The notes: generated by a model not told the origin, from the letters alone. A stretch of 64,000 nucleotides of DNA from Patescibacteria group bacterium (GCA_041749335.1 JBGTBM010000010.1:142039-206038), one strand, 5' to 3'. Counted from the stretch's first letter, positions 1,511-55,296 are shown. Translations and numbers: made by a program.

Positions 1511-1602
1511 CATCCAGTTGCAATACTTTATTTAAGGATTTAGCCAATAAAATCAACAATTTTACGTCTTATCTCTATTAATTTCGGTATTTTAAGAAAA
1601 AT

Positions 1603-2190
1603 ATGGCAAAACCATTAGCAGAACAATCCAATAGTATAAGTATATTTATGCTCAAAAAGTGGGGCTACATAAACTCAAAAGGCGGCCAATCTTGCGGAGT
1701 TTTAACATGGACTTCGTTCGGATATGAAAATAGTATTAATTTTAAGATTATTACTACAAGTAAAGATGAACCAGATGATTGCTATATAAAAATATCTTAT
1801 TCATATTCAGATATTTATAGCGATGATAAAGAATCTCTTGATTATAAAATAGAATTAACCACCACGGAGTGCAATTATGGAGGAACAAGATATTGGTTTA
1901 GATGTCCTTTAATAAGAAATGGTCATGCATGTAATAAACGAGTAGGTGTTTTGTATCAGGCGGGTAAATATTTTGGATGCAGATATTGTGCGGATATTTC
2001 GTATAAATCACAAAGACAAGGAGGTAATTATCGTGAAAGCTCAATAACAATTTATGATATTGAAAATTTTGAAAATGAAATAACAAAATATTATTATAAA
2101 GGAAAGCCAACCAAGAAGCATCTTCGTCTAAAAAAAATGCGAGATAGATTTGAGAAAGATTTTTATATTTCTGTTAGCTTACTTATATAG
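1603..2190 (+). CDS. Hypothetical Cys-rich (Zn-ribbon-like) protein inside the mobile element.
   Basis: CxxC-type pairs (CNYGG..RCP, GCRYCAD). Located between the primase and the recombinase. Confidence 0.4.
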   Translation: MAKPLAEQSNSISIFMLKKWGYINSKGGQSCGVLTWTSFGYENSINFKIITTSKDEPDDCYIKISYSYSDIYSDDKESLDYKIELTTTECNYGGTRYWFRCPLIRNGHACNKRVGVLYQAGKYFGCRYCADISYKSQRQGGNYRESSITIYDIENFENEITKYYYKGKPTKKHLRLKKMRDRFEKDFYISVSLLI

Positions 2191-2236
2191 AATTTGATAC
2201 TTTACTTATAATCAATAAAAAGATATAATATATACG

Positions 2237-2333
2237 TTGACCCACTATTAATAATTTTCCAAGGAATTTTTGTTTGTCGCTATGATGGGCGACTCTGCCA
2301 ACAAACTACTCCTTGGAGTAATAGTTGGGTCAA
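2237..2333. promoter_or_regulatory. ~97-bp nested near-perfect palindrome (TTGACCCACTATT..CCAAGGA..GTCGC-N8-GCGAC..TCCTTGG..AATAGTTGGGTCAA). Candidate recombinase att/res site or operator.
   Basis: Read directly from the sequence. Sits immediately upstream of the serine recombinase start (2368). Confidence 0.45.
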
Positions 2334-2367
2334 CCAGGGTCGTCCTTTTAGTTAATAAGATAAATAT

Positions 2368-3978
2368 ATGAATGAAGACAAACCTAAAATTAAATACTTT
2401 CTTTATACTCGCAAATCCTCAGAGGCTGAAGATAAACAAGTGGCTTCAATTGATTCTCAAATATCAGAATTAAGAAAAAAAGCTAAGCAAGTAAATATTA
2501 AGATCGTAAAGATATTTAAAGAATCTATGTCAGCTAAAGCTCCTGGTCGCCCCGTTTTTAACGAAATGTTAAGCAAAATTCAAAATGGCGAAGCTGACGG
2601 AATTTTGTGCTGGAAACTTGATAGGCTTGCCAGAAACTCAGTAGATGGAGGTCAAATTATATATTTACTGCAAAGTAATATTATTAAAAATATACAAGCA
2701 TATAGTCATAGCTATTATCCTAATGATAATGTTGTCATGATGTATGTTGAGTTCGGTGTAGCAAATCAATTTGTTAAAGATTTAAGCCAAAATGTAAAAA
2801 GAGGCTTTAATTCAAAAGCTCAAAGAGGATGGTTTCCTAACCGATTAACCCTGGGATATATGCACAATCCTAAAGGCTATGAAGATGGTAAGGAAATAAT
2901 CATTGATCCGGATAGCTTTAATGGTTTAAGAGAAGTATTTGATTTAGTTCTCACAGGTAATTATACGGTACCAGAAATATACAAAATTGCTATTAACGAG
3001 CTTTGTCTTAGAAATAAGAAGGGCAAGAAATTTTCACTAAGCACCTTATATAGAATATTAACTGATACATTTTATTATGGAGAATTTGAATATCCAAAGG
3101 GTAGTAGTGATTGGTTTACGGGTAAACACCATCAAATGATAACAGAAGAAGAATATGACAAGATTCAAATCATTTTAGGTAGAAAGGGCAAACCTCGCCC
3201 CAAGACTCATAAATTCGCCTATACAGGCCTTATACGCTGTGGTGAGTGCGGATGCAGTATAACCGCAGAAGATAAAATTAAAAAACAAATAAATGGTAAT
3301 ATACATAGATACACATACTATCACTGCACAAAACGTAAAAAAATACCCTGCTCCCAAAAAAATATAAGAGTTGAAAATTTAGAGAAGCAAATTAAAAATG
3401 TATTAGAAAAAATTGAAATTCCTAACAAGTTTTATCAGTGGGCATTAGATGAATTGCGGGAACGAAATAAAAAAGAATCCATAAATAGAGAAGAATTATT
3501 GTCTACGCAACAAAGACAATACAACAATTGTATCCAGAAAGTAGATAGATTGATTGATATGAGAACTAATGGAGAGCTTACAGAAGAAGAGTTTAAAAAT
3601 AAAAAGAGGGAATTAATAAAAGAAAAGGATAATTTCCAGAAACTTCTCAAAGACACAGACAACCGAGTAGACGACTGGTTAGACAAAGCAGAAGAAATGT
3701 TTAAATTTGCAGAAACTGCTAAATACAGATTTGAAAATGGCACCCTTGAAGATAGAAAGAATGTGCTTTCTATACTAGGTTCGAACCTCTTCCTAAAAAA
3801 CAATATTTTAAGTATACAAGTACAAAAACCCCTATTACTCATTCAAAAAGCCTCTTCTGAGATAAAAGCTTTTTCCAGAATGTTAGAACCTCAAACAATT
3901 GGCTTAAACAAAAGAAAAAAGAGAGCTTCTCGCTCTCAATTTCCTACACTATGGGACGTACAAGAATCGAACTTGTGA
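2368..3978 (+). CDS. Large serine recombinase/integrase (resolvase catalytic domain + recombinase domain + Zn ribbon + coiled coil).
   Basis: N-terminal YTRKSS..SIDSQ..DRLARN resolvase motifs. Zn ribbon CGECGCS..YYHCTKRK. Length 536 aa. Last 27 nt overlap tRNA-Lys. Confidence 0.85.
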   Translation: MNEDKPKIKYFLYTRKSSEAEDKQVASIDSQISELRKKAKQVNIKIVKIFKESMSAKAPGRPVFNEMLSKIQNGEADGILCWKLDRLARNSVDGGQIIYLLQSNIIKNIQAYSHSYYPNDNVVMMYVEFGVANQFVKDLSQNVKRGFNSKAQRGWFPNRLTLGYMHNPKGYEDGKEIIIDPDSFNGLREVFDLVLTGNYTVPEIYKIAINELCLRNKKGKKFSLSTLYRILTDTFYYGEFEYPKGSSDWFTGKHHQMITEEEYDKIQIILGRKGKPRPKTHKFAYTGLIRCGECGCSITAEDKIKKQINGNIHRYTYYHCTKRKKIPCSQKNIRVENLEKQIKNVLEKIEIPNKFYQWALDELRERNKKESINREELLSTQQRQYNNCIQKVDRLIDMRTNGELTEEEFKNKKRELIKEKDNFQKLLKDTDNRVDDWLDKAEEMFKFAETAKYRFENGTLEDRKNVLSILGSNLFLKNNILSIQVQKPLLLIQKASSEIKAFSRMLEPQTIGLNKRKKRASRSQFPTLWDVQESNL

Positions 3979-4024
3979 CCTTCTGCTTAAAAGGCAGCTG
4001 CTCTACCTGCTGAGCTAACGTCCC
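3952..4024 (-). tRNA. tRNA-Lys (anticodon UUU).
   Basis: Cloverleaf folded manually: GGGACGT/ACGTCCC acceptor, anticodon loop CUUUUAA, T-loop TTCGATT. 73 nt, no encoded CCA. Confidence 0.85.
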
Positions 4025-4048
4025 ATATAAATTAAATTATTAATGATT

Positions 4049-11125: not shown

Positions 11126-12175
11126 TTAATTTTGCTTATATTTAGAGCGAATAAATATATATATAAAAGCCGAAGCTATTAAGGTTAAAACTAAAATAAT
11201 TGTGGTAAATTGGGGAATAACAGCTTCGGTGCCATCAGTGCGCCATAACTCGCCGCATGATTTTTCATTATAGGTGCCGACATATAAATATTTTCCATAT
11301 ACTATCATGGACATCATGGCAATATTATTTTTTAAGCCAAATCCGCTCTGGCTTACTCGACTCCAGGCGCTTAAATCATTATTAAATCTCCACACTTCTC
11401 CCCCGCTCTCTTCGTTCCAGGTTCCAAAAAATAACTGCCCGCGAAATATTTCCATCGAATAAATGCCGATATTATTTATGTCATTTATTCCATTTCCGAT
11501 TATTTTATTCCAATTATTACTATCATATTTCCACAGCTGGGCTCCATTTGTTTTATTTAAAGTTCCTGCGTATAATCTTCCCTGATGCTCTTTTATAATC
11601 GGAATAGCGGTGTTATTTTTATCTCCAAAACCGTCTCTAATTTCATTATTTATGTTACTGCCGTCATATGAATAAATTCTCCCGCCGTCAACTTCATTTA
11701 TGGTGCTAATATATAATTTATTGTTTAGTTCTTCCATCGACATAAATTCTATATTGTTGGTTGAATCAATGCCCGAATTTACTATCAAATCCCAATTACT
11801 TCCATTGTGAACCCATAATTCTGCCCCCTGAGAAATATTCTTAGTACCAACATATAGCCGATTTTTAAACACAATCATTGAAGAAATTGAAGTATTATTG
11901 GCATTCCCTAGGCCACGATCCGCTATTTCTTCCCATCTAAACCCATCAAATCTACGAATTTCCGCCCCATCCAAAGAATTTTCAGCTCCGGAATATAAAT
12001 AATTTTTATATACTGCCATTGATTGAAAATTGATTGCCTTACTCTCTTGGGCGCTAATTTTATTCCAGCCGCCCGAAAAAAAGGCAGTAAATATTATTGC
12101 GCTTATTATAAATAATACAAAGACAACATAATAAATATCGATCTTCAACATTCTTTTTTTGATTTGTGCAATCAT
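11126..12175 (-). CDS. Repeat (beta-propeller-like) surface protein with a C-terminal TM anchor (..AVIPQF + TM + RSKYKQN).
   Basis: Reiterated ~45-aa blades (KN.LY.GT.N...GAELW). N-terminal TM/signal. C-terminal hydrophobic helix plus basic tail. Confidence 0.55.
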   Translation of the reverse strand: MIAQIKKRMLKIDIYYVVFVLFIISAIIFTAFFSGGWNKISAQESKAINFQSMAVYKNYLYSGAENSLDGAEIRRFDGFRWEEIADRGLGNANNTSISSMIVFKNRLYVGTKNISQGAELWVHNGSNWDLIVNSGIDSTNNIEFMSMEELNNKLYISTINEVDGGRIYSYDGSNINNEIRDGFGDKNNTAIPIIKEHQGRLYAGTLNKTNGAQLWKYDSNNWNKIIGNGINDINNIGIYSMEIFRGQLFFGTWNEESGGEVWRFNNDLSAWSRVSQSGFGLKNNIAMMSMIVYGKYLYVGTYNEKSCGELWRTDGTEAVIPQFTTIILVLTLIASAFIYIFIRSKYKQN

Positions 12176-12181
12176 AATTTA

Positions 12182-13516
12182 TTAGTTTTTAATTTTTTTC
12201 ATGCCAATATCATTTTCCACATCCTTGCTTGTTTCTACTCTCATTTCTTTATCGGGAAATATGTAGCCGTTCTTGGTGGGAATAATATTGCTATTTATTT
12301 CGTCTCCGATTAAAAACCCATAGCGTCCATCTGCTTTTGTGATATAGGCTTGCATCAATCTGCCATAGGTAGTATCAAAGATTCTCACTACCGTATTTGG
12401 CAACGCTCTAAAGCTCTGAACATCATAAACCTTGCCCCATGGCTTAATTTTTCTTCCCATTGCCAGCCTTCTAAATAATAACAATATCAACACGTGCGCC
12501 ATCAACAACAGATAAGTAAATAAGCCCGGATTAAGAATGAAGCTGGTAAGTCCCAACATCGGTCCCAGATAAGCGATAACTTTATTCGCCGTTTTAAATC
12601 TGCTCCTCCAAATAATCTTATTATTCCTTTTTCTCTGGGCCTCCTCATCTAACTTATTAAAATCTTCCAATGTAGCAATGTCTGTTTTCATTTTTGCTCC
12701 CACGTCACCGGTAGCGACATAACCCGCTAGCGGATCAAGCGGAATATTATATGCAATAAATCCTTGATCATCTTCTTTTTCTTTTCCGATTTGAAATTCT
12801 TCGCCGTGATATAAATTATCAAATTCTTTGTCTTTAATTTCGGCGGCCATAATTTTAGTTGGAAATTTATAGCCATGTTTAGTTACCGTCACATAATATT
12901 TACGATTGAAATCAACAATTAATAAATATTTTCCTTCCAAATTGGTTATTTTTGTTTCAACTAATTTTTTTGTTTCAGCGTCAAATAAACGCACTACGGC
13001 CAAATCCACCGGCTGCTTAGTTAAAGAATCATAAACAACACCCCATTTTCTTTTCTTTTTACTGAAGTATAAAAATGGTTCAGTCAGCAGTTGCCAAAGA
13101 TACATAAGATATGGCAGTAGTGATGATAATGATATTATAGACAATAAATTAGCTAAGGCCAGAAGTACGAAGGCCATGGCCGCATATGGACTTTGCAGCC
13201 GATAAATTAATTGCTGTTGAAAGGGCAGCTCTCCGATTGGAATTTCTTTAGTGCCCAATTTTTTCCAGTCTTTGCCGTCAAAATACCAAATTTCTCCCCC
13301 GGCTAAATTAAGCGTACCGATATAAAGCTTACCTTTAAATACCGCCATGGAATTTATGCCTTCATTGGTACCGCTATCGCGGCATCCCCAAAATACCCTT
13401 TGCCAAAGTAATTCCTGAGATTGAGCCTTGATGTCGCAGGGCAATAAATTAAACAAAATTGCCAACGCAAAAAACAAAGAAAAAACAAGCAATATTTTTT
13501 TATGAAGCCTTTTCAT
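12182..13516 (-). CDS. Hypothetical multi-pass membrane protein with one propeller-like blade and CarboxypepD_reg-like beta-sandwich domains.
   Basis: Signal peptide, KLYIGT..GGEIWYFDG blade, several TM stretches. VVYD..VRLFD.. and VYDV..VRIFD.. modules. Confidence 0.45.
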   Translation of the reverse strand: MKRLHKKILLVFSLFFALAILFNLLPCDIKAQSQELLWQRVFWGCRDSGTNEGINSMAVFKGKLYIGTLNLAGGEIWYFDGKDWKKLGTKEIPIGELPFQQQLIYRLQSPYAAMAFVLLALANLLSIISLSSLLPYLMYLWQLLTEPFLYFSKKKRKWGVVYDSLTKQPVDLAVVRLFDAETKKLVETKITNLEGKYLLIVDFNRKYYVTVTKHGYKFPTKIMAAEIKDKEFDNLYHGEEFQIGKEKEDDQGFIAYNIPLDPLAGYVATGDVGAKMKTDIATLEDFNKLDEEAQRKRNNKIIWRSRFKTANKVIAYLGPMLGLTSFILNPGLFTYLLLMAHVLILLLFRRLAMGRKIKPWGKVYDVQSFRALPNTVVRIFDTTYGRLMQAYITKADGRYGFLIGDEINSNIIPTKNGYIFPDKEMRVETSKDVENDIGMKKIKN

Positions 13517-19381: not shown

Positions 19382-21520
19382 ATGTTTACTGAAAGATATA
19401 AAAGTTTTAATATTTTTAATCCCGCTAAATCAAAATTATTTAGCGGATCATATGTTTTATCTCCCCAAAATCCTGATTATGACAAGCTCGGCCGCTTATA
19501 TTTGATTATGGAATTTTCACTGGATAATAATTTAGCTTCCAAGATCAGTGAAATCATTTTAGAAGTCTTGCAAAAAGAATATTACCGGCTGGAAGATGTA
19601 TTTAGAGAAGAACTGATTTTATCAAATTTTGAGAAGACATTAAATAAAACAAATCAAGCTTTATCGGCTTTGGCTTCCCAGGGCTATACCGATTGGATCA
19701 ATAATACCCACATCGCCATCGCCGTATTAAAACACAATAAAATACATTTTGCTATCACCGGAGACCCGAAAATTTTTCTAGTCAGGGGCAATAATTTTAT
19801 TTCCATTAATCAAGGATCTGGTAGCCAAACCCCCTCCCCCATGAAAGCCTTTACCAATATTACCAGCGGAACTTTAATGGCAGACGACAATCTCTTCCTG
19901 GCTACTCCCGAACTGATGAAATTTATTTCCGAAGATAAAATTAAAAAATTAATCGTCAATAATAAAGACGAGGTTTTGGAGTATATCAAGCACGAGATCC
20001 CCATGACCGATGATTACTCTTTCGCAGCTTTATCCATCAATATTGAAAAAGAGAAAAAAGTTAGCAGCTTTCCAATGAACGCACCATCCAAAATTCAGCC
20101 ACGCGAACTTGACTATCCCAGTTTAAATAATCTGGAGGAACTTAAATACCGTGAAAGTAAAAACACCGAAAGCTCAAATTCCGCTCCCGATGTGTTAAGC
20201 CCTAGTCCAAATATTAAACCCAAGACCGGAATTTCGCTTGCCAAGATAAAATTATTAGGCTCTAAATTCTTACGAAAAGCGCAATCAGTAAAAAAACTAG
20301 GTAATAAAACAAACTTAAAGGCCGGGGCTCAAAACATCAAGCGCACCGGAGGCGGCATTAAAAAATTGCCCAAGGTTCTGATTTATAAATTTAACGAACT
20401 GCCAAAATCCAGTAAATTATTATTAGTTTTATCGGTTGCTTTGGCAGTGCTTTTTGGCGGCAGCTTAATCATGCTTAAACAAAAAAAGAACGAAATTACC
20501 AAATTGAGCCAGCACGAGATCTTGTTAAATAGCGCCTTAAATAAAGAAAAAGAGGCTCAAGATGCCCTAATTTATAAAGATAAAGATAAAGCCAAGGAAT
20601 TGCTCATGCAGGCCAAGGAAGAAGCCAATAAATTAATTGCGGCTGATGTAATGGTAGCTGAAGCTAAAAATCTTTTGGATAAAATCAGTGAACAAATTGA
20701 TAAAGCGGAGGGAGTAACTCGCGTCAAAGATCCATTATTGGTCGCCGATTTAAAAGATCAACCGATTGATGGAATTTTCGGTTTGGACGGAACTGTGTAT
20801 TCTTTTAATCAAAGTAATAATTTTGTTTACAGCGTTGATGAAGAAAGCAAGGCTCTCTTAAAAGTATCAGAGGAGTCAAATAATATGGGGCATTTTACCA
20901 AGGGAACAATAAATGATGTTAGTAATTCTTTGATTTTCTTAACCGACACTCCCGGTTTTGTTGAATTCATGTTGGGAACCAGATCTATTGATAAGCTGGA
21001 AATTGATATTTTTAACTATGACAACGATACCGTGGATATAAAAACTTACGGCGATCGCTTATATCGACTAGTCCCTTCACAAAAACAAATTTTAAAGCAC
21101 ACGCGAACCATCGCCGGATATTCTCGGGGCGTGGAGTGGGTGCTTTCTAATGCAGGCGAGCTGGAAAATGCGGTTTCTTTCGCTATTGACGGCCAGGTTT
21201 ATGTTTTAAAGTCAGATGGCAATATCATAAAATATTTACGGGGAATCAAGCAGGAATTCAATATGCCGGAAATGCAAAATCCGCTTGAATCCCCCACAAA
21301 AATATACACGTCCGATAATTTAGACTATTTGTATGTTTTGGAACCAAAAAATAAAAGAGTGATAGTCCTGGATAAAAATTCCGGCAATTTAACCAACCAA
21401 TATACATCTGATAAATTTGACGACTTAAAAGATCTATACGTGGATGAAGAAGGACAAAAACTTTATATTTTAGCCGAAGATAACATTTACGGTATTGTTC
21501 TGGATACAGATAGCAACTAG
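19382..21520 (+). CDS. Large hypothetical protein (712 aa) with a central TM helix and C-terminal repeat (propeller-like) region.
   Basis: TM LLLVLSVALAVLFGGSLIM at about residue 340. No confident domain. Confidence 0.4.
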   Translation: MFTERYKSFNIFNPAKSKLFSGSYVLSPQNPDYDKLGRLYLIMEFSLDNNLASKISEIILEVLQKEYYRLEDVFREELILSNFEKTLNKTNQALSALASQGYTDWINNTHIAIAVLKHNKIHFAITGDPKIFLVRGNNFISINQGSGSQTPSPMKAFTNITSGTLMADDNLFLATPELMKFISEDKIKKLIVNNKDEVLEYIKHEIPMTDDYSFAALSINIEKEKKVSSFPMNAPSKIQPRELDYPSLNNLEELKYRESKNTESSNSAPDVLSPSPNIKPKTGISLAKIKLLGSKFLRKAQSVKKLGNKTNLKAGAQNIKRTGGGIKKLPKVLIYKFNELPKSSKLLLVLSVALAVLFGGSLIMLKQKKNEITKLSQHEILLNSALNKEKEAQDALIYKDKDKAKELLMQAKEEANKLIAADVMVAEAKNLLDKISEQIDKAEGVTRVKDPLLVADLKDQPIDGIFGLDGTVYSFNQSNNFVYSVDEESKALLKVSEESNNMGHFTKGTINDVSNSLIFLTDTPGFVEFMLGTRSIDKLEIDIFNYDNDTVDIKTYGDRLYRLVPSQKQILKHTRTIAGYSRGVEWVLSNAGELENAVSFAIDGQVYVLKSDGNIIKYLRGIKQEFNMPEMQNPLESPTKIYTSDNLDYLYVLEPKNKRVIVLDKNSGNLTNQYTSDKFDDLKDLYVDEEGQKLYILAEDNIYGIVLDTDSN

Positions 21521-22167
21521 TTTATCTTTTCCGCAAAAACGATATATCTTCTTAACACGCTTCCCAGTGGCCAGCAAGTAATTAACGCCAATCCCGATTC
21601 AATCGCGGGATTTTTTATTTGTTCCCACTCCGACGGATTAATAATTTTATTGCCGGCCACCCGATAATCATATTTAATATTTTGGTAATATATATTGATC
21701 TCGTCTCCGTCTTTTAGTTCGGGAATCAGCGCAAAAACATTATTATAATCGCTTTTTACCCACCAGTAGTTTGAGCTATGGCCCAAAAGCACAGACAGTC
21801 CCCGCTCTTCACCAGGCAGGCTTGATCCGGCATAATACACCACGCCCTTATTCAGATTATCAGTTATGGACTCTTCATTAAGGCCGGAATTAAAGATAAT
21901 AGGCGCTTTTACATTTATTTTAGGGATATAAATACTATCTTGAATATTTTTTTTATCCAATGGCTTGTCCTGCTGGTAAACATTTTGAACGAGGCACGCG
22001 CTTCCACAAATATCATAACTCATCTTTTCTACAATCATTCCAAAATTTAAACTAATCAAAATAAACTCGATTATCATTACGGCCCAAAATATCTTTTTAA
22101 TTTGTTTTCTTATTTTCATATTTACTATCAAAAAAACGAGCGTTTTACCGCCCGTTTTTTCGTTCAA
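21517..22167 (-). CDS. Sortase family transpeptidase (likely true start at Met17, about 22119).
   Basis: His motif LLGHSSNYW, catalytic Cys in LALITCWP (TLxTC), downstream Arg (RRYIV), N-terminal TM anchor. The ORF-track start is a TTG. Confidence 0.65.
   Translation of the reverse strand: MNEKTGGKTLVFLIVNMKIRKQIKKIFWAVMIIEFILISLNFGMIVEKMSYDICGSACLVQNVYQQDKPLDKKNIQDSIYIPKINVKAPIIFNSGLNEESITDNLNKGVVYYAGSSLPGEERGLSVLLGHSSNYWWVKSDYNNVFALIPELKDGDEINIYYQNIKYDYRVAGNKIINPSEWEQIKNPAIESGLALITCWPLGSVLRRYIVFAEKIN
22124..22156 (-). terminator. Intrinsic terminator downstream of rplL (AACGGGCG/CGCTCGTT hairpin with A-run and T-run).
   Basis: Hairpin plus T-tract read on the - strand. Confidence 0.5.
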
Positions 22168-22168
22168 A

Positions 22169-22645
22169 TTATTTTAGTTCAACTTTAGCGCCAGCTTCTT
22201 CTAATTTCTTCTTTAATTCTTCCGCTTCCGCTTTAGGAGCGTTTTCTTTAATTACCGCCGGAGCTTTGTCTACCATGTCTTTGGCATCCTTTAATCCTTT
22301 GCCGGTAATTTCTTTTACTACCTTGATTACTTGTATCTTTTGTCCGCCCACGTCAGTTAGCTCGACATTAAAATTGGTTTTTTCCGCGGCGGCTTCTCCA
22401 CCTTCTCCGGCTCCGGGAGCTTGGGCCATCATTGCCATTGGAGCTGCAGCCGACACACCGAATTTATCTTCCAATACTTTTACCAATTCAGATAATTCCA
22501 GTACACTCATTTTCTCAATCTCTTCCACTAGCGGCTTAAATTTTTTAGGAACTTCAACTTCCTTTTTTTCTTCTTTGTCTTCTGTTGTTTTTTCTTCTTT
22601 CTTGTCCTCCGCAGCTTTAGCGGAGGTGGATTTTTCTTCAGCCAT
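22169..22645 (-). CDS. rplL: Ribosomal protein L7/L12, with a Lys/Glu-rich N-terminal extension in the longest ORF.
   Basis: [20 protein letters not shown]-terminal [41 protein letters not shown]. The first ~45 aa are low-complexity and may not be translated. Confidence 0.9.
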
Positions 22646-22676
22646 ATATTTTATTAATTATTTATATATTTAATTA

Positions 22677-23201
22677 TTATGCTTTTTGATCCTTAATAGA
22701 ATTTAAAACGTTTACCAATCCCCTTAAATTGCCGGCTAACACATTAACAAAGCCGGTAATGGGAGCTTTGATTGTGCCTACTGTTTTGGCCAATAATTCT
22801 TGCTTGCCGGGCAGTTTCGCCAGAGATTCCACTTCGCTTTTAGCCAAATATTTTCCGTCTAAAATTCCGGCCAATATCTCCAAATTATTATGTCCTTTGG
22901 CAAAATCATAGACAATTTTGGCCGGTGAAACTTCGTCTTCCACCCCAAAAGCAACCGCAATTTGTCCTTCCTGCTGTTCCATTTCAGCATCCTTGATTTC
23001 GGATTTGGCCCGAGCTACTTCAAATAACGTATTTTTAACGATCTTGTAGGATACGCCTTGTTCGCGCATCTTAGAACGCATTTCTTCCAATTCCTTGACG
23101 GTCAAACCCTGATAGTTGGTTAGAACTAAAGACTTGGCCTCATTCATCTGATCTACCAAATTTTTGACATCTTCTTCTTTTTGCTTTCTTGTTTTTGGCA
23201 T
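22677..23201 (-). CDS. rplJ: Ribosomal protein L10.
   Basis: MPKTRKQKEE..LVLTNYQGLTVKELEEMR motif. Precedes rplL. Confidence 0.9.
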   Translation of the reverse strand: MPKTRKQKEEDVKNLVDQMNEAKSLVLTNYQGLTVKELEEMRSKMREQGVSYKIVKNTLFEVARAKSEIKDAEMEQQEGQIAVAFGVEDEVSPAKIVYDFAKGHNNLEILAGILDGKYLAKSEVESLAKLPGKQELLAKTVGTIKAPITGFVNVLAGNLRGLVNVLNSIKDQKA

Positions 23202-23273
23202 AATGATTAGATAATCACGAAGCTAAAACTAATTTCATACAAATTGTACTTATTAGTATTAATCTCGTTTATT

Positions 23274-23311
23274 AATAAAAAAATCGCTCATTACCATAGA
23301 ATTGAGCGAAA
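23274..23311 (-). terminator. Hairpin CGCTCA-N12-TGAGCG plus T-run between surface-protein paralog 1 and rplJ. Terminator or rplJ leader structure.
   Basis: Read directly from the sequence. Confidence 0.4.
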
Positions 23312-23452
23312 TTACAACCATTACTAATCACTATTTTCTAATGACTAATAACCAGTTAAAACTCCCTCGGTAAGTTTTACGCATAAAATGCTACTTACGG
23401 TCTATGGTAAGTTAAAATAATGTTAATCTAATTACGATTAACTGTCAAGTGT

Positions 23453-24859
23453 TTACTTTTTATTTCTTTTATAAACTAACATCACCACAATAAACATTCC
23501 AAAAGCGGCCAAAGCGACTAATATCAAAGCTTTGTATGATGCAAATTCCGGTACAGTCGGACCCTCTTCTTGTTGTTCTAGTTCTCCATAAAAAACGTTA
23601 TAATATGATGGAATTGCTCGACTGCTAAATGTAGTAATTGGATCACCTCCTGATGTTATTTCAATATTTGGCATCATACCGAAATCATTACCGGTGCTGC
23701 CTTCATATACTGCATCGGCGGTCCAAGTTCCAGCGCCGGTTCCGGCGCAATTAGCGCTATCGCATGAATAATAAATTGCATCGTTTGTAGATGTATCGGA
23801 ATATATTATATGGGGGAATTCAGATGAATCATAAGCTACAGTTGCTCCCACCCATTTATCCTCTCCTTCGAACGGGAAAGTCCCTGAAAATACATTACAA
23901 TCCCAAGCATCGCTGCCGCCATAAGAGTCATCGCAGTTGCCTCCGCTGCCGACATATTCCGCGAAAGCTAAACTGCCGCTATAATCAAAGACTAAACCAA
24001 TTGTATCAGCATCTTTAACATAAATATCCCCGTTATAAATTAATCCGCTGGCGACTGTAGTTAAAGCCCAGTCTTCTGCCGCATCGCAGCTAGACGTAGC
24101 AACATCACATCTGGCCACATATAAACCACTGCCATCATCGTAAGAAGTATAGATTAATCCGGCTGAACTGGCGCTGATACGGCTATTCTGGTTATTTTTA
24201 TTGGTGAAAATATTATATAAAGTATAATCTCCAGCAGTATCACACCCGGATGAGGCATAATCATCACAGTAGCCATACTTTAATGTTTGATAACCATCAT
24301 TCCAAATTCCATGATAGCGATCATTGCCATCTATGGATAAATCGGTATGCGCTTCGGTATTTGCATCAGTTAAATCAATGGTAAAGCATGACCAGGCAGT
24401 TATGCCTGAAGCACATCCGGTGCCGCCGCTCCCAACATATACTGCCATCCTGGTTCGATTCGCCGTATCATACCCAGAGTAGATTATGGCAGCATAATTG
24501 TCAGAATTATAATCAATAGCATTGTACTCTCCAATGAGGTTGATAGTGTCATCCAAAGTTATTTCCGTATTCCAGCTTGAAATTCCTCCTCCGCCATCCG
24601 TAGCACAATCGCCCGACGTACAATCCCGGAATCTTAAGGAATCATCAAAGTCGGACATCCAGGCCACTCCGGGATAGTTATCGCTTCTTAACGCCATAGA
24701 TACAAACCCGTTATAAACTACGCTTGGCTCATCAATTATTGAATAAATATTTAACACATCCCAATTAGTTCCCTCGGCCGCCCAAACAATACCGTACAGA
24801 GCCAAGGATGCTCCACAAATTAATAGCAGTGCCAAAAAATAATTTTTTATTTTAGCCAT
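23453..24859 (-). CDS. Surface-protein paralog 1 (Cys/Tyr/Gly/Ser-rich repeats; C-terminal TVPEF + TM + KRNKK). True start at MAKIKNYF (24859); the ORF track extends to 24949.
   Basis: Signal peptide. Repeated C-x3-6-C-x4-8-W and YVGSGG.C modules. C-terminal TM anchor. Confidence 0.6.
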   Translation of the reverse strand: MAKIKNYFLALLLICGASLALYGIVWAAEGTNWDVLNIYSIIDEPSVVYNGFVSMALRSDNYPGVAWMSDFDDSLRFRDCTSGDCATDGGGGISSWNTEITLDDTINLIGEYNAIDYNSDNYAAIIYSGYDTANRTRMAVYVGSGGTGCASGITAWSCFTIDLTDANTEAHTDLSIDGNDRYHGIWNDGYQTLKYGYCDDYASSGCDTAGDYTLYNIFTNKNNQNSRISASSAGLIYTSYDDGSGLYVARCDVATSSCDAAEDWALTTVASGLIYNGDIYVKDADTIGLVFDYSGSLAFAEYVGSGGNCDDSYGGSDAWDCNVFSGTFPFEGEDKWVGATVAYDSSEFPHIIYSDTSTNDAIYYSCDSANCAGTGAGTWTADAVYEGSTGNDFGMMPNIEITSGGDPITTFSSRAIPSYYNVFYGELEQQEEGPTVPEFASYKALILVALAAFGMFIVVMLVYKRNKK

Positions 24860-24930
24860 TTTTTTATTATTAATAATCTGGTTTATTATATCAAACAAAA
24901 CAAACCATTTATAGCTCCGCCTGTGCATAA

Positions 24931-24961
24931 CTAAAAAAGCGTCCATCACTTAGATGGACGC
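24931..24961 (-). terminator. Intrinsic terminator after paralog 2 (GCGTCCATC-actta-GATGGACGC plus T6).
   Basis: Perfect 9-bp stem plus T-tract. Confidence 0.7.
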
Positions 24962-24977
24962 CTTAATAATTATTTAG

Positions 24978-26441
24978 TTATTCTTTGTTCTTATTGCGCC
25001 AGGCGACAATTCCAATAACCATCCCTAAGGCTAAAACTGCAATTACAATCTTCCAAATATTGCTCTGGGGAAGTTCCGGGACTATATCTTCTAACGGCGG
25101 CTCATCGCCTCCTTGTTCGCCGTAATACAAATCACCAGCTACAGTATCTGAAAATGCTACGCGGGGCCCGGAACCAAATTCTACGCTAGAAAGTATCCCA
25201 AAGTGATTCATATTAATTTGATTAGTATAAAAAATTGTTTGCCTATTCCAATTACTAGGAGTAGTACAATTTGCAGTACAATGAGAATATTCTGCAATAA
25301 AATCTTTATTTTCTGGTGAAATAGTTTGTTTATTGACATTATAAGCTAACCCCCGCTCTCCAGAAGAACTAATGTCCATTTCTAATGACAAGGCACTATT
25401 ATTGCCGGGATGTAATGGTGTATATGTGGAAGCAATTGAAGCACATGTCCAATCTGAACTTGAACATCCGGTACCACCACTACCTACATATTCAGCATAA
25501 TGTAACTGATAACCAGAATCTTGCGCATAAGCTATAGCTAATATTCCAGCCTTAGCTTCAATATCACCCACCATAACCGCTGATGAATCGATTGTCGTGG
25601 CAGATGACCAATCAGTAGAATCATTACAGCCAGTAGAACTAAAATTACACGTTTTATAATAAAGGGTAGTTGTTGAATCTGTAAAAGCTACATGCAAATT
25701 TCCGGAAGAATCCGCATCAATTCTTGCAGCTTGGTTATAAATACCATGATGAATTTCATAAAATTGAAAATCGCCAGTTTCATCACACCCCGAAGCGGCC
25801 ATATCACAGAATGCATAATTTAAATCATAATCATTATTATTAGTATAAACAATATGGTAATTTCCATTGCTATCGATAACGAAATCCGAATTTGGTGCGT
25901 AATCAGAATTACCAAGAGAAAAACATTTCCAGTTATTATTACCACCAGCACAACTATTTTCTGTTCCCGATCCGGTATATTTTGCAATTCTCATTGGATT
26001 GTATGCATGGAGTATTACCGGTTTATTATCGGAACCATAATCCAAAGAAACAAATGTTCCATACCTAATACCCGAAGCGGGTGTTTCAACAGTTATTTCG
26101 GAACCCCAATTCTCTCGGCCACCACCATCTCCTAAGGCGCAATCACTACCAGAATTACATTCAACATATCTTAGACCGCTCCAATTATCATTATTATCTA
26201 TTCTATAGCTATAAGCGATTCCGGGATATCCATTGCTTTTTGTCGCTAAGGATAAAAAACCGCCTAATGGCCTCTCATCAGATAAATTTCCATCATTATT
26301 TATATAATCATATACCACATCCCAATCAACACCTTCTGAATATGCCGCTTGCGCAAAATTATTATTTGCAAGACACACCCCCATTACTGCAATTATAAAT
26401 AGAAGTATAATTTTTCCTGCGGTAAAAATTTTTTTGACCAT
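24978..26441 (-). CDS. Surface-protein paralog 2 (C-terminal IVPELPQSN + TM + RNKNKE).
   Basis: Signal peptide. Same repeat modules as paralogs 1 and 3. The 3' end is ~85% nt-identical to paralog 3. Confidence 0.6.
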   Translation of the reverse strand: MVKKIFTAGKIILLFIIAVMGVCLANNNFAQAAYSEGVDWDVVYDYINNDGNLSDERPLGGFLSLATKSNGYPGIAYSYRIDNNDNWSGLRYVECNSGSDCALGDGGGRENWGSEITVETPASGIRYGTFVSLDYGSDNKPVILHAYNPMRIAKYTGSGTENSCAGGNNNWKCFSLGNSDYAPNSDFVIDSNGNYHIVYTNNNDYDLNYAFCDMAASGCDETGDFQFYEIHHGIYNQAARIDADSSGNLHVAFTDSTTTLYYKTCNFSSTGCNDSTDWSSATTIDSSAVMVGDIEAKAGILAIAYAQDSGYQLHYAEYVGSGGTGCSSSDWTCASIASTYTPLHPGNNSALSLEMDISSSGERGLAYNVNKQTISPENKDFIAEYSHCTANCTTPSNWNRQTIFYTNQINMNHFGILSSVEFGSGPRVAFSDTVAGDLYYGEQGGDEPPLEDIVPELPQSNIWKIVIAVLALGMVIGIVAWRNKNKE

Positions 26442-26523
26442 AAATGTATTTTTTAATTAAATATTTATCCTAATTGATTATATTATATTTCTCAATTCTA
26501 CGAAATGCCCGCCTGTGCATAAT

Positions 26524-26551
26524 TAAAAAAGCGCCCCAAATTTATGGGACG
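26524..26551 (-). terminator. Intrinsic terminator after paralog 3 (GCGCCCCA-loop-TGGGACGC plus T6), preceded by the conserved motif CCGCCTGTGCATAAYTAAAAAAGCG.
   Basis: Hairpin plus T-tract. The motif is shared with the 24915-24940 region. Confidence 0.6.
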
Positions 26552-26555
26552 CTTT

Positions 26556-26583
26556 TGTTATATGTTATATGTTATATGTTACA
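26556..26583. repeat. Tandem heptamer repeat (GTTATAT)x3 + GTTACAT between paralogs 3 and 2.
   Basis: Read directly from the sequence. Confidence 0.8.
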
Positions 26584-26586
26584 TGA

Positions 26587-28008
26587 CTATTTTTTTTTCT
26601 TATTGCGCCAAGCGACGATACCGATCACTAAGCCAAACGCCAGAACCGCGATTGCAATCTTCCAAATGCTGCTTTGTGGCAGTTCGGGTACGATTTGCTC
26701 TTCAGGCGGTAAGTCACCTTCCTGCTCGGCATAGTAAACATATAAACTTCCAGATGTACTTGAGGCAATTCTCGGTCCGGAGCCAAATTCCATGGAAATT
26801 AAACTTCCTGAATATATATTAGTAGGAGTGCCATTATTAACAAAAATTGGTTCCGCTGTCCAGTTTGAATTGGTAGTACAGTTACTGGTGCATGACACAT
26901 ATCGCATATTCGGATTACCACTGGGAGAACCGACTGCGATTCCTCTTTCTCCAGTAGCTGAATAGATATCAAGCTCAAAAGCATATCTGCCATCGCCATT
27001 AGAATCTATTGAAATATTAGACGAACTAACATTTGAACAATTCCAAGCGTCTGCGCCAGCAGCCCCACCCCATGAATTATCGCAATTTCCGCCAGATCCT
27101 ACATATTCCACATATTTAAGATACTCAGAAGCTCCGTTATATGCGAATCCCAATGTGCTTGTTTGAGCATCAAGGCTCATGTTGGGAATTTGACTAACAT
27201 ATGAAGAGGTCGAAACAACATTGTAAACTGTACTCCATTCTCCACTCGCATTACATCCGGTATTAATATCACATTTAGAATATTTTATATAATACCCATT
27301 ATATTCACCATATACTAAATGTAGATAACCTGAAGAGTCAATATCCAACGAATGATGTGAATTACCACCAACGCTGTAAAGATCTAATTTTGAGTAATCA
27401 CCAGGATCATCGCAATTGGTAGTATTGTATGTTTGACATACTGCCACGGCAACTCGAGGATTACTTCCATCATCAAAAACAAGGTAATAATTATTATTGC
27501 CATCAATAATGAAATCAAAGTCTGCATTATAAAAGGACACAAATGATCCAGAAGAAAATCTCCATGCACTATTTATATATGTTGCAATTTTCAAATTATT
27601 TCCGTCAGTATAAAAAATAACCGGCTCATCGTTTGTATTAAAATCAATTTTTGCGTAATTGATATTGGTACTACTATTAATTGTAGTATAAGGACTCCAA
27701 TTTCCCACTCCATCTCCCGAAGCACAATCCCCCGATGTACACTCGGCATAGCCTAGTCCTCGTGTACTATTTTTAGAAAAAACAATCGCAGGATAACCAT
27801 TGCTCCTAGTAGCTAACGAAACATTCCGCTGATAAGTAGCACCACTATAAATACTGCCGGGATGATTTACATTTCCGCTATCATATACCACGTCCCAATT
27901 CGTTTGTTCAATAGGAATCGCCATGGTTGTATTTAGGCCCACAAAAGCACTCGTCAGCATAATTAAAAGAAAAATTAATATTCTTTTTAACCTGTTTGGT
28001 TTTTTCAT
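26587..28008 (-). CDS. Surface-protein paralog 3 (C-terminal IVPELPQSS + TM + RNKKKK).
   Basis: Signal peptide. Shared Cys-repeat modules. Confidence 0.6.
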   Translation of the reverse strand: MKKPNRLKRILIFLLIMLTSAFVGLNTTMAIPIEQTNWDVVYDSGNVNHPGSIYSGATYQRNVSLATRSNGYPAIVFSKNSTRGLGYAECTSGDCASGDGVGNWSPYTTINSSTNINYAKIDFNTNDEPVIFYTDGNNLKIATYINSAWRFSSGSFVSFYNADFDFIIDGNNNYYLVFDDGSNPRVAVAVCQTYNTTNCDDPGDYSKLDLYSVGGNSHHSLDIDSSGYLHLVYGEYNGYYIKYSKCDINTGCNASGEWSTVYNVVSTSSYVSQIPNMSLDAQTSTLGFAYNGASEYLKYVEYVGSGGNCDNSWGGAAGADAWNCSNVSSSNISIDSNGDGRYAFELDIYSATGERGIAVGSPSGNPNMRYVSCTSNCTTNSNWTAEPIFVNNGTPTNIYSGSLISMEFGSGPRIASSTSGSLYVYYAEQEGDLPPEEQIVPELPQSSIWKIAIAVLAFGLVIGIVAWRNKKKK

Positions 28009-28096: not shown

Positions 28097-29161
28097 TTAA
28101 TTTAAATATTTCTGCTTATTAATATTATGCTCTTCCAGGTTTTTAGAAAAAATCGCCTCGCCGGTATCAAGCGTAGTCAAAAAGAAAAAATAATCATGGC
28201 TGGCGGGATCAATTGTCGCAGAAATAGCCATAAGTCCCGGATTGCCCACCGGTCCCGGAGGCAGCCCTTCGTTTAAATATGTATTATAGGGCGATTCAAT
28301 CTGCGTATCTTTAATCGTTGGCTGGGGATCTTTTTTGCCGGTGATGTATGTAATAGTTACGTCTGACTGCAATTTCATGCCAGTATTGAGGCGGTTATAA
28401 TATACCCCTGCGACTTTTTTCATTTCCTGCTCATCTCTCACCTCTTTTTCCACTATCGATGCCAGAGTAATTATCTCATAGAAATTCAAATCTTGTTTAT
28501 GGGCTTCTTTTATCATATCCGCACCGACTTTATCTTGAAAATTATCCAGCATTTTCCTTACAATTGCTTCCGGCTCAGAGTTCGCAAATACTTTATATGT
28601 ATCGGGAAATAAAAATCCCTCCAAATCATTACCTTTGGGAATATTGGAAAGAAAATCATAGTCCTTTTTATACTTGCTGATATTTTTTATTTCTTCCAAA
28701 AATTTATCCTCAAATTCTTTCGCCAATTCCTCCGGCGCTTTATCGCTAGCTGTATGCTTCCCGTGATATAGAGCAAATTCTTCTGCAATTTCCCGACTAT
28801 TATATCCTTCCGGAATGGTTACCCGATCGTCTTCCGCCATTTCTCCGCCGATCAAAATTTCTACGATCTCTTTGGGAGTCATAGAGGGAGCCAGCCGATA
28901 TTTGCCGGCCTTGATTTTATCTTCCGACCGCTTCAGCCAGATACAGGTATCAAAAAAGAAATTATCGGAAATAATTCCCTGCTTTTCCAACCGCGCCGAT
29001 ACAATATTGACTCCGTCCCCGCTTTCCACCACAAAATCCTGTTCACCCGCGGAATTAATATAAGGCTGATTAAATTGATAATTCATCCAGATGACAAATC
29101 CCGCCCCTGTCAAAATTAAAATAACGATTAATGCGATAAATATTTTTGCGCCGGTTTTCAT
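28097..29161 (-). CDS. mltG: Endolytic murein transglycosylase MltG (YceG family).
   Basis: N-terminal TM. YYNRL.., LQSDVTITY, EGLPPGPVGNPG motifs. Confidence 0.8.
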   Translation of the reverse strand: MKTGAKIFIALIVILILTGAGFVIWMNYQFNQPYINSAGEQDFVVESGDGVNIVSARLEKQGIISDNFFFDTCIWLKRSEDKIKAGKYRLAPSMTPKEIVEILIGGEMAEDDRVTIPEGYNSREIAEEFALYHGKHTASDKAPEELAKEFEDKFLEEIKNISKYKKDYDFLSNIPKGNDLEGFLFPDTYKVFANSEPEAIVRKMLDNFQDKVGADMIKEAHKQDLNFYEIITLASIVEKEVRDEQEMKKVAGVYYNRLNTGMKLQSDVTITYITGKKDPQPTIKDTQIESPYNTYLNEGLPPGPVGNPGLMAISATIDPASHDYFFFLTTLDTGEAIFSKNLEEHNINKQKYLN

Positions 29162-44914: not shown

Positions 44915-45718
44915 TTATTTTTTAATTAAAATAATTCCCAGCTTTTCGCCCGTGAGCATCAAATCCGGATCAGCATTTGCTCCAGTGACAAAATTATGAA
45001 TGGATTCGTAAAAATTATAATGTGAATATTCAAAATTCGCCCCAAATTGGGTACCGGGATCATGGGTAATAATTTTTTCTTCAGTATATCCGATAACGGT
45101 TAGCATATGATAGACCGGCGCGGGCGGAGTAAAATGCTTATTTTCTAAAACTCTTCCGGCGGCGGGTATTATTACCGGATTGCCATTGGCTATTTCCGAC
45201 TTGATTGCTTCTAGGCTTTCAATTTTTATTATTTTATATTCGTATCCTAAATATTTTTCGATTACCGTCGCCACTTCTGCTATCTGTAAATCTTTGTGTG
45301 AACCGAAATATTTTAGCTCCCAATCGATCATCTGCTGCAGATCATCTCTGACCCTTTCGGGCGCAATTGTTTTAATATTTTCTAAATAATAATACGCATT
45401 TAAAATCGCGGCCTCTTCGCACGCATTCTGCCAAGGCTCATTCCAATCTTTGAAAGGGGCCTGCGGAACAAATACAGCCTCCAGAGTTTTTGTTTGCGGA
45501 ACTACAATATCTCCTTCTTCTTCCGGAATATTTAATTCATTTTGACCAATAATATTTTGTTGATAATTATCATTGTCTAAAATATTTTCTGCCTTTTCTA
45601 TTTCTTCTCCTGCTTTTTGCTCTTCATTGATATTTTTAAACGCATAGACAAAAATCACGATTATCGGAATCGTGATTAATAGTGCAATTAATATTTTTTT
45701 ATTGGTTCCTCTTTTCAT
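44915..45718 (-). CDS. Secreted protein with C39-like (YvpB-type, papain-fold) peptidase domain.
   Basis: N-terminal TM/signal. Putative catalytic Cys in WQNACEEAA and His in HMLTVIGY. Paralogous to the C-terminus of the next gene. Confidence 0.5.
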   Translation of the reverse strand: MKRGTNKKILIALLITIPIIVIFVYAFKNINEEQKAGEEIEKAENILDNDNYQQNIIGQNELNIPEEEGDIVVPQTKTLEAVFVPQAPFKDWNEPWQNACEEAAILNAYYYLENIKTIAPERVRDDLQQMIDWELKYFGSHKDLQIAEVATVIEKYLGYEYKIIKIESLEAIKSEIANGNPVIIPAAGRVLENKHFTPPAPVYHMLTVIGYTEEKIITHDPGTQFGANFEYSHYNFYESIHNFVTGANADPDLMLTGEKLGIILIKK

Positions 45719-45719
45719 A

Positions 45720-53223: not shown

Positions 53224-53303
53224 TGGAAGGTGCTAGGCGAGATATTCGGATGAATAGTTGACTTCCTCAGAATGAGTTGGTCGGAAAGATCAAATCTAGT
53301 GCG

Positions 53304-54743: not shown

Positions 54744-55296
54744 TTCTGTCTGCCCACATTGTCTTTTCCGAATACCTATTATTAATGTACTTTCCCCTTA
54801 TATGCAAACAAGAAGAACCTTTTTTGGGCACTAAGCCCTCACCTCCATAAGGAAGGTCTAAGTAAGGAGGTAACTTAGACAAGGTTCTTCATATCTGAAT
54901 ATAATTTCCAAGTTTTAACTTAAGATTTTGAGAAATTATATAATCATTATTGAAAAGGTTCGTTTTTAACGCCATCTCTTTTCAGGCATCAATATTTTTT
55001 ACTATCTCAATCTTTATTGCACAAGTTTAACATATTATAATATTTATGTCAAGGCCTTTTGACATCTTTTGTCATTTTATTATCTTTTGTTTCATCTATA
55101 TTGTATTATTTTTTATAAATTATGTTTTACAATACCAACATATATTTATTAATAATGTTTTAGGCGCAGACATTTGGCGAGTTAAGTAATAGTGTTTTAT
55201 TTCTGAGTTATTGGCAGGTTAAGAACCTGCCCTACTTAAATATCTTTAAATTACATAGTTAACTGGGACTTAGTATATATATTTATTCATAAAGCC

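Follow-up and report, generated by a model that had tools for sequence, protein, structure and literature searches.

A Lineage-Specific C-Terminal Tail on Predicted Propeller Proteins Encoded near a Sortase in a Patescibacterial Genome

Layout of the locus

We analyzed a stretch of 64,000 nucleotides from a Patescibacteria group bacterium (GCA_041749335.1, JBGTBM010000010.1:142039-206038; hereafter, the window), in which a sortase gene lies near three tandem genes for Cys-rich secreted proteins that end in a shared tripartite tail, the main subject of this work. The locus lies on the minus strand and comprises, in transcription order, yceG/mltG (28097..29161), paralog 3 (26587..28008; 473 amino acids [aa]; VPEL type), paralog 2 (24978..26441; 487 aa; VPEL type), paralog 1 (23453..24859; 468 aa; VPEF type), rplJ for ribosomal protein L10 (22677..23201), rplL for ribosomal protein L7/L12 (22169..22645), and, last, the sortase gene (21517..22167). 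Three back-to-back open reading frames (ORFs), separated from the sortase by rplJ-rplL, had been described in an original prediction made for this DNA; both points are confirmed, the paralogs by ORF translation (for paralog 2 also by homolog search and Cys layout) and the ribosomal genes by ORF translation and by Pfam matches (Ribosomal_L10 in L087, L003, and L004; Ribosomal_L12 in L087 and the L003/L004 counterparts; L numbers denote loci, and P numbers denote proteins). Beyond the sortase, a gene for a 712-aa membrane protein is convergent with it, the 3' ends overlapping by 4 bp.

An L10 leader RNA, which is autoregulatory for rplJ-rplL, was recognized at 23269..23425 by the Rfam model RF00557 (59.5 bits versus a gathering score of 44, E 7e-8, full-length model), and the promoter scan placed a promoter-like site (TTGACA-17-TAACAT, 23448-23420) just upstream of it. 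Intrinsic terminators with 12-bp stems follow paralog 2 (stem 24964-24936, then a T-run) and paralog 3 (stem 26556-26527). Each is joined to a copy of a repeated box, CCGCCTGTGCATAAYTAAAAAAGCG, at 24917-24944 and 26509-26536 (93% identical over 28 nt), so that terminator and box together occupy 24917..24964, upstream of the paralog 1 promoter, and 26509..26556. The proposal that a terminator and a conserved box follow every gene of the array thus holds for paralogs 2 and 3; paralog 1 has no terminator, the promoter-like site and the L10 leader coming directly next, and half of the box merely consists of the terminator's 3' arm with its T-run. The remainder is a 14-16 nt element, TTATGCACAGGCGG, identical in both copies, which is partly kept as TTATGCACAGG at the equivalent site in L004 and more weakly in L003. 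Its position just upstream of the next gene's promoter-like site suggests that it may be a promoter-proximal regulatory site. The repeated box shows that the gene was duplicated together with its intergenic unit, and not recently.

The terminator scan found none between rplL and the sortase gene, which occupies the place after rplL that usually belongs to rpoB. Taken with the L10 leader ahead of rplJ, this suggests that the sortase may be cotranscribed with the autoregulated ribosomal-protein operon. An operon uniting the sortase with the propeller genes was considered and is ruled out by the terminators after paralogs 3 and 2 and by the L10 leader before rplJ.

The order yceG, propeller genes, rplJ, rplL, sortase recurs in the related loci L003 and L004, where the gap from rplL to the sortase is about 200-245 bp; L001 spans only the propeller-rplJ-rplL part of this arrangement, and L002 spans only the rplL-sortase part. 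Wherever its presence could be checked (the window, the L003/L088 genome, and L004), the sortase is found at the same position. A 551-kb contig that carries a sortase ortholog (P0008) also encodes a third tail-bearing paralog, P0075.

The Cys-rich paralogs and their predicted fold

In the homolog search, paralog 3 matched paralog 2 with an E of 3.9e-70 (37% identity over the best local alignment) and paralog 1 with an E of 9.4e-38 (30% identity). All three proteins have an N-terminal Sec-type signal peptide, and their mature parts contain 12, 12, and 10 cysteines (six pairs in paralog 1), every one of which belongs to a short C-x3-14-C pair. The pairs fall in two recurrent blade signatures, (Y/F)..C....C.....W and EYVGSGG.C....W.C, in agreement with the two types of reiterated module with paired Cys and a Trp that were originally described; no Pfam or NCBIfam model exists for this disulfide-stapled blade.

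Paralog 3 was chosen for modeling with AlphaFold2 (AF2). The model shows repeated four-stranded blades closing a ring, as had been suspected when a disulfide-rich beta-propeller was suggested for the repeats, followed by a single predicted C-terminal helix, with the VPEL motif in a low-confidence, presumably flexible linker just outside that helix. The paralogs are hence predicted to be seven-bladed beta-propellers with blades stapled by short disulfide loops. Structural likenesses are to the lectins BP39L (28.5), PLL (27.6), and CV39L (24.4), a glycoside hydrolase, and polysaccharide lyases, all at about 10% identity. Set beside PLL, BP39L, CV39L, CylK, and BNR-like propellers, the paralogs are about 10% identical with no evidence of a conserved binding site, and the Y..C...C....W / YVGSGG.C..W.C disulfide-stapled blade signature distinguishes them. 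Cell-surface proteins of episymbionts of the candidate phyla radiation (CPR) are thought to mediate host attachment. Given the propeller fold and the episymbiotic lifestyle attributed to CPR bacteria, these propellers probably serve an episymbiotic Patescibacteria/CPR-like cell as adhesins that bind ligands or carbohydrates.

A word-indexed homolog search with paralog 3 returned only the three paralogs and one ortholog from the Joint Genome Institute (JGI), and an exhaustive profile search of 1.84 billion representatives yielded 1148 proteins at E<=1e-3. Most of the latter are giant (1200-3000 aa) multirepeat proteins or propellers of other phyla, some with a weak BNR_4 match; hence, the blade module is widespread, and the ~470-aa architecture with its tail is not. 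That architecture was found only in the three proteins of the window and in P0004, P0037, P0075, P0146, and P0047, the last two being fragments. The orthologs of paralog 1 (P0004 in L001; 7095-8510 in L003; 7160-8581 in L004) have an equivalent Met start and lie directly upstream of rplJ. Many of the giant proteins, within P0027-P0087, combine the same Cys-loop blade module with a conserved nonmembrane C-terminal domain of the pattern SEYFE..G.YW.Y.R.YQ....T..F..D.F......LR.G..F, and at least one of them, P0033, has a subthreshold match to the N-terminal pilin-type N_methyl motif (E 0.008, 16.1 bits versus a cutoff of 21.2).

A conserved C-terminal tail on two unrelated propeller families

Each of the three paralogs ends in an acidic linker, the motif VPE[LF], a spacer of 4-7 residues, a hydrophobic core of 17-20 residues, and a Lys/Arg-rich end, bearing out the tripartite tail of the original prediction. 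The tails read VPEF-ASYK-ALILVALAAFGMFIVVMLVY-KRNKK in paralog 1 (23456..23554), VPEL-PQSNIWK-IVIAVLALGMVIGIVAW-RNKNKE in paralog 2 (24981..25082), and VPEL-PQSSIWK-IAIAVLAFGLVIGIVAW-RNKKKK in paralog 3 (26590..26691). A fourth protein of the window, a 349-aa ELW/Kelch-type beta-propeller surface protein encoded on the minus strand at 11126..12175, ends in IPQF-TTIILVLTLIASAFIYIFI-RSKYKQN (tail at 11129..11218), which confirms the AVIPQF, transmembrane (TM) segment, and RSKYKQN previously noted there. It matches the ELWxxDGT repeat, with a weak Kelch match (E 8e-5). Its homolog search gave no orthologs, only relatives of 25-38% identity with other tails; a metagenome scan then revealed an ortholog in L090, 59% identical, which keeps EAVIPQF while its TM helix and tail have diverged. 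Directly upstream of the ELW propeller, in the window (12182..13516, minus strand) and in L090 (48..1400), lies a gene for another conserved protein of 444-450 aa, an odd hybrid of propeller fragment and polytopic membrane protein with a signal peptide, one or two ELW-like blades, and then TM segments alternating with CarboxypepD_reg-like domains.

We anchored 13 tails of this lineage on the motif: the four of the window, one from L001, two each from L003 and L004, those of P0075 (L088), P0146, and P0047 (L089), and one from L090. All 13 share one layout, in which [V/I]-P-[E/Q]-[L/F] is followed by a spacer (0, 4, or 7 residues), a stretch of 17-20 uncharged residues, and a basic end of 4-11 residues, 4-6 of which are Lys/Arg. 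In the 11 tails of the Cys-rich family, about 10-12 residues of acidic or proline-rich linker precede the motif; in the two ELW propellers, the motif comes directly after the last blade (...WRTDGTEAV). Three subtypes can be told apart, VPEL-P..(N/S)(I/L/M)WK, [VI]P[EQ]F-(A/S)SY(K/R), and IPQF-(T/S)T, as illustrated by the motif-region peptides EEQIVPELPQSS, EEQIVPELPQSSIWK, GPTVPEFASYK, and TEAVIPQFTT. The forms cross family boundaries in that P0047, of the Cys-rich family, carries IPQF; P0075 carries IPEL. What is constant in these tails is the motif, its flanks, the spacer, and the TM segment being variable. VPE[L/F] is kept in every ortholog found, from about five related metagenomic genomes, so that the motif persists across orthologs and paralogs and in a second, unrelated family; the original prediction had named the lack of such a motif as a refuting case.

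The motif is also restricted in its distribution. In the window, a signal peptide combined with a C-terminal helix and a basic end occurs only in these four proteins, one further match being a polytopic membrane protein, and across the ~130 kb of the lineage sampled, every signal-peptide protein with a C-terminal TM segment and basic tail has [VI]P[EQ][LF]. No LPxTG-like tail was found in that ~130 kb of sequence. Outside the lineage, none of 80 other CPR sortase neighborhoods contains a [VI]P[EQ][LF] tail, and among 2475 ORFs of the fetched loci (1.38 Mb), the four-residue pattern turns up within 50 residues of the C terminus in only five others, none with a helix after it. The tail motif is thus lineage specific, and the lineage itself is rare, being represented by a handful of contigs among ~15 billion proteins.

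Selection on the tail and age of the duplication

The 3' ends of paralogs 2 and 3 had been reported to be about 85% identical over about 100 bp and had been taken as evidence of recent duplication or gene conversion. We measured 76% nucleotide identity over the last 100 nt, against about 54% for the whole genes. Of the last 37 codons, 13 match exactly, 17 show synonymous differences, and 7 show nonsynonymous ones; within the IVPELPQ codons, five of seven differ synonymously. This preponderance of synonymous differences points to long-standing purifying selection on the peptide, and the 76% identity together with the saturated synonymous differences rules out recent gene conversion. The duplication, too, is old, since both VPEL and VPEF types are present in relatives with sortases 52-56% identical to that of the window. 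Only the VPEL type has been duplicated again in this genome, the copies having since diverged to 37% identity over the best local alignment.

Comparison with curated sorting-signal models

The tails alone were scanned against NCBIfam at E<=10, and no CTERM or LPXTG model reached its cutoff, in keeping with the view that the motif is neither LPXTG nor PEP. The subthreshold matches were PEF-CTERM (TIGR03024; 9.6 bits versus a cutoff of 23), for the ELW-propeller tail only, with an alignment that begins at model position 6, right after the Phe, and so is in register with PEF, and PEP-CTERM (TIGR02595; 11.2 bits versus a cutoff of 16), in which only the TM and basic part is aligned (model positions 7-24) and the motif is left out. 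LPXTG_anchor (TIGR01167) gave no match even at E<=10. Control tails from other CPR sortase loci (LPVAG and LVSTG) scored 14.1-15.4 bits on LPXTG_anchor with the motif aligned, and a control IPTVSEWG tail scored 19.6 bits on IPTL-CTERM; hence, the scan can see such signals, and the [VI]P[EQ][LF] tail lies outside every curated model.

Two known kinds of sorting signal invite comparison. LPXTG signals have the same tripartite plan (a hydrophobic-Pro motif, a hydrophobic segment, and a basic tail), with adhesin-like surface substrates and a membrane-anchored His/Cys/Arg sortase nearby, and the hydrophobic segment followed by a positive C terminus is present in all 13 tails. The [VI]-P of the first two motif positions fits the L/I/V-P of known sortase motifs. 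To our knowledge, however, all characterized sortase motifs have Thr (rarely Ala/Ser) at P1 and Gly/Ala/Asn at P1'; the Thr-Gly pair is kept by LPXTG signals of all characterized classes and is missing here, where the tails read VPELP, VPEFA/S, and IPQFT/S. The sortase here, moreover, lies in or behind the L10-leader/rplJL unit and not in a substrate operon. PEF-CTERM and PEP-CTERM signals resemble the lineage tails in having Val/Ile and a Pro-Glu-(Phe/Pro)-like motif, a TM helix close behind, and a basic cluster, and in that a single signal occurs on several unrelated surface proteins per genome. They differ in their hosts, PEF-CTERM being archaeal and PEP-CTERM a signal of diderm bacteria, whereas the lineage here is bacterial and CPR-like; further, the spacer of the VPEL subfamily is seven residues long, and the model scores fall below the cutoffs. 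Archaeosortase C recognizes the archaeal PEF-CTERM (Haft et al. 2012, as cited in PMC5244752).

Relatives of both propeller families from other phyla also end in recognized or recognizable sorting tails, either IPTL-CTERM-like (19.6 bits) or of the form GGIAELPD...RRRW. The latter belongs to another conserved tail, GG[IM]AE[LWM]P[DP] continuing after ~20 residues with a TM helix and then ARRRW[VL]R, which we observed in relatives of both families from apparently GC-rich organisms (P0066, P0081, P0093, P0101, P0102, P0112, P0154, and P0191). Among the NCBIfam models, GVDTG_CTERM fits this tail best, with a score of 19.5 bits that falls short of the cutoff of 29, and the tail may be another uncurated sorting signal.

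The sortase and its relatives

The neighboring gene encodes a true sortase by Pfam score, catalytic triad, and predicted fold. It matches the Pfam family Sortase (PF04203) at E 3e-21 (75.8 bits versus a cutoff of 26.6) and TIGR01076 at 59.4 bits (cutoff 39.35); the models for classes A-F all score far below their cutoffs, the best being class C at 64 bits versus 160, with D, E, and F lower. The segments LLGHSS, ALITC, and LRRY align with SAHTG, TLLTC, and ERLLV of PDB 7d6p, placing the catalytic His, Cys, and Arg. The hallmarks originally listed, including LLGHSS, therefore stand, save that the Cys motif is ALITC and not TLITC, and the triad, whose absence on alignment would have spoken against a sortase, is present on alignment to solved sortases. 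These three residues are invariant in 20-21 homologs, and 20 CPR homologs share the signature GHSSNYWW. The structure prediction that had been suggested agrees: the AF2 model (pLDDT 84.3) has an N-terminal membrane helix and the sortase beta-barrel fold, and Foldseek matched it to class C, A, E, and D sortases with a probability of 1.00 and an E of ~1e-10. Comparison with orthologs (200-202 aa) indicates that the start is most likely ATG 22119 (MKIRKQ..., 200 aa) and not TTG 22167, since the orthologs start there.

Past the membrane helix, the lineage sortases share an extracytoplasmic C-x3-C (DICGSAC). When the sequences were compared for lineage substitutions that might account for an altered specificity, the consistent ones were limited to two, a change from GN to G[LI] ahead of the catalytic His and one from GV.H to GV.[YF], and their effect on specificity is uninterpretable from the alignment. 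An IPEL within the sortase itself (FALIPELKDGD) was considered as a signal and set aside as a coincidence, given its internal position within a segment that sortases conserve.

Among species-representative genomes, relatives of the sortase come almost entirely from metagenome-assembled genomes of Patescibacteria/CPR (Saccharibacteria, Berkelbacteria, Kazan, Peribacteria, and others), from which we judge the organism to be a CPR-like bacterium. CPR sortases in L006, L017, L020, L023, L029, L031, L038, L046, L049, L053, L055-L057, L061, and L062 have neighbors with tail-bearing proteins, the motifs being LPVTG, LPVAG(F/N)(N/E/D)D, LPSAG, LVSTG, LVKTG, LVTTTG, LADTG, PPKTG, and (A/V)(D/E)TG; in the LPVAG group, these are small (~220-240 aa) proteins encoded immediately 3' of the sortase. 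The sortases of L006, L020, L029, L038, L046, L053, L055-L057, L061, and L062 are of the same clade as that of the window, sharing GHSSNYWW and 30-46% identity; they likewise have secreted neighbors with tails, but these tails (LPVTG, LPVAG, LVSTG, LVKTG, LADTG, and PPKTG) are never [VI]P[EQ][LF]. Same-clade CPR sortases are often directly beside the tail-bearing proteins (L006, L020, L038, L053, L055-L057, and L061), so that adjacency of sortase and substrate is common in the clade. The neighborhoods of the nearest outgroup sortases, P0013 and P0011, contain no tail-bearing proteins.

Possible roles of the tail

Taking these findings together, we consider it fairly probable that the tail acts as a genuine signal for processing or sorting, specific to this lineage, and not as a mere anchor, because unrelated ectodomains share it under purifying selection and because relatives from other phyla have recognizable sorting tails at the same position. 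As to the mechanism, we tentatively favor, as the most probable single one, cleavage by the sortase and attachment to the wall. The propellers would be exported via Sec and then kept in the membrane by the C-terminal helix and basic tail, with the motif exposed. The membrane-anchored sortase, whose gene lies 1.3 kb away beyond rplJ-rplL, would recognize the motif, cleave at it, and transfer the propeller to peptidoglycan. Such a system would amount to LPXTG sorting in a variant form, with the Thr-Gly of P1/P1' replaced. Cleavage, the identity of the enzyme, and the target of attachment are inferred; this reading is favored because the tail architecture of all 13 lineage proteins is that of a cell wall sorting signal, because the unrelated ELW propeller and its ortholog share the motif, and because the ~130 kb of lineage sequence lacks any LPxTG tail while the sortase is intact and must therefore have substrates. 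Also in its favor are the constancy of the motif amid variable flanks, its place in a presumably flexible linker outside the helix, the [VI]-P start that fits known sortase motifs, the fixed position of the sortase wherever it could be checked, and the frequent adjacency of sortases and tail-bearing proteins elsewhere in the clade. The narrower proposal that a canonical-looking sortase has been retuned to [V/I]-P-[E/Q]-[L/F], cleaving after the Leu/Phe and thus forming a new specificity class with disulfide-stapled propeller substrates, is possible but doubtful.

Several observations weigh against a role for this sortase. The whole ~20-kb region is syntenic in the relatives, so the conserved proximity of sortase and propellers carries little specific information, and P0075 with its IPEL tail has no sortase within 10 kb on either side on its 551-kb contig. 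Within the window, rplJ-rplL and the L10 leader stand between the sortase and the paralogs, and every propeller gene is equipped with a terminator or promoter of its own. Tails with LPVTG, LPVAG, LVSTG, LVKTG, LADTG, and PPKTG are linked to CPR sortases that share 30-46% identity with that of the window, and the adjacent substrates in other CPR, LPSAG and ADTG tails included, keep the Thr/Ala-Gly of characterized sortase motifs; a sortase acting on the lineage tails would have to accept Leu/Phe at P1 and Pro (VPEL subfamily), Ala, Ser, or Thr at P1'. The loop from the catalytic Cys to the Arg shows no consistent lineage-specific change, the GTNLKR of P0008 resembling the outgroups, and the likeness of the motif itself to PEF-CTERM or VPEP is no smaller than its likeness to LPXTG. 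Of the lineage-specific anchoring system with its own motif that was originally envisaged, the conserved, lineage-restricted motif and the intact sortase are upheld, and proximity is all that joins them.

The simplest reading, which needs no enzyme, is a plain type I membrane anchor without cleavage, with [VI]P[EQ][LF] as a juxtamembrane or stalk element (for example, a helix cap or interface motif) shared by ancestry or tail shuffling. It agrees with the single C-terminal helix of the AF2 model, with the frequent ending of the spacer in an aromatic residue and Lys/Arg (IWK, SYK/R), typical of membrane interfaces, and with the narrowness of the lineage, in which tails could spread by recombination between surface-protein genes; nor is any processing enzyme demonstrably linked. 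We nevertheless hold it to be rather unlikely: the four-residue motif is kept across paralogs of ~30% identity and in an unrelated ectodomain family while the TM segment diverges, the synonymous saturation speaks for long-term selection on the peptide, and the same position in other-phyla relatives of both propeller families is typically that of a sorting signal. Alternatively, the tail could be a PEF-/PEP-CTERM-like signal whose processing falls to an enzyme of the exosortase/archaeosortase family, or to another membrane protease, encoded elsewhere; the sortase would then be left for LPxTG-type substrates, in line with the xTG motifs used by related CPR sortases. VPEF/IPQF do resemble the Pro-Glu-Phe of PEF-CTERM, as VPEL-P does the VPEP of PEP-CTERM; the distance of 0-7 residues between motif and helix likewise agrees with those systems, and the only subthreshold CTERM matches of the tails are to these two models. 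Those scores, however, are far under the cutoffs and come mostly from the TM part, no exosortase/archaeosortase-like polytopic protein is encoded in the window or in ~70 kb of the relatives' loci, and the organisms appear to be monoderm with peptidoglycan genes. A full-text literature search found no link between exosortase/archaeosortase and CPR/Patescibacteria, which is weak evidence. We regard such processing as improbable.

Other features of the window

The window, with a GC content of ~0.37, encodes murF, a penicillin-binding protein, and the mraZ/W peptidoglycan genes; the source organism appears to be a monoderm with peptidoglycan genes. A region at 53300..54800 of 0.61-0.64 GC, with flanks of 0.25-0.33 in a genome of ~0.37, holds a single 479-aa ORF (53304..54743, minus strand), whose Lys/Arg/Glu/Cys-rich product has CxxC motifs and no Pfam or PHROG match, and long shadow ORFs occur on both strands; foreign DNA or a chimera in the assembly could account for the region. 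At 80..4025, genes for a 476-aa protein and a 195-aa Cys-rich protein, neither with a family match, are followed by a large serine recombinase (2368..3978) whose Resolvase, Recombinase, and Zn_ribbon_recom domains were seen on the same gene in L086 and whose 3' end overlaps tRNA-Lys (3951..4025); this is probably an integrated mobile element. Finally, 44915..47408 (minus strand) encodes a secreted 562-aa protein with FG-GAP repeats and a Peptidase_C39_2-like cysteine protease domain, adjoined by a 267-aa secreted protein, and the pair may constitute a surface protease module.

Implications

Over half of CPR genomes encode a sortase (Meheust et al. 2019, PMC6744442), and our full-text literature search found no description of CPR sortase recognition motifs. 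CPR sortases, surface propellers, and tripartite C-terminal signals were already known; the novelty lies in the motif and its confinement to a rare lineage, together with a possible change in sortase specificity. As a side gain, the neighborhoods surveyed here give a first rough picture of the motifs found beside CPR sortases (LPVTG, LPVAG, LVSTG, LADTG, and similar ones). The conserved tail provides a search handle for the surface proteome of the lineage. If the sortase does process these tails, it would be a natural non-Thr/Gly sortase, of relevance to sortase enzymology and to the engineering of protein ligation, and, should the retuned specificity prove true, [V/I]-P-[E/Q]-[L/F] would be the first natural sortase signal without the pair of P1 Thr and P1' Gly.

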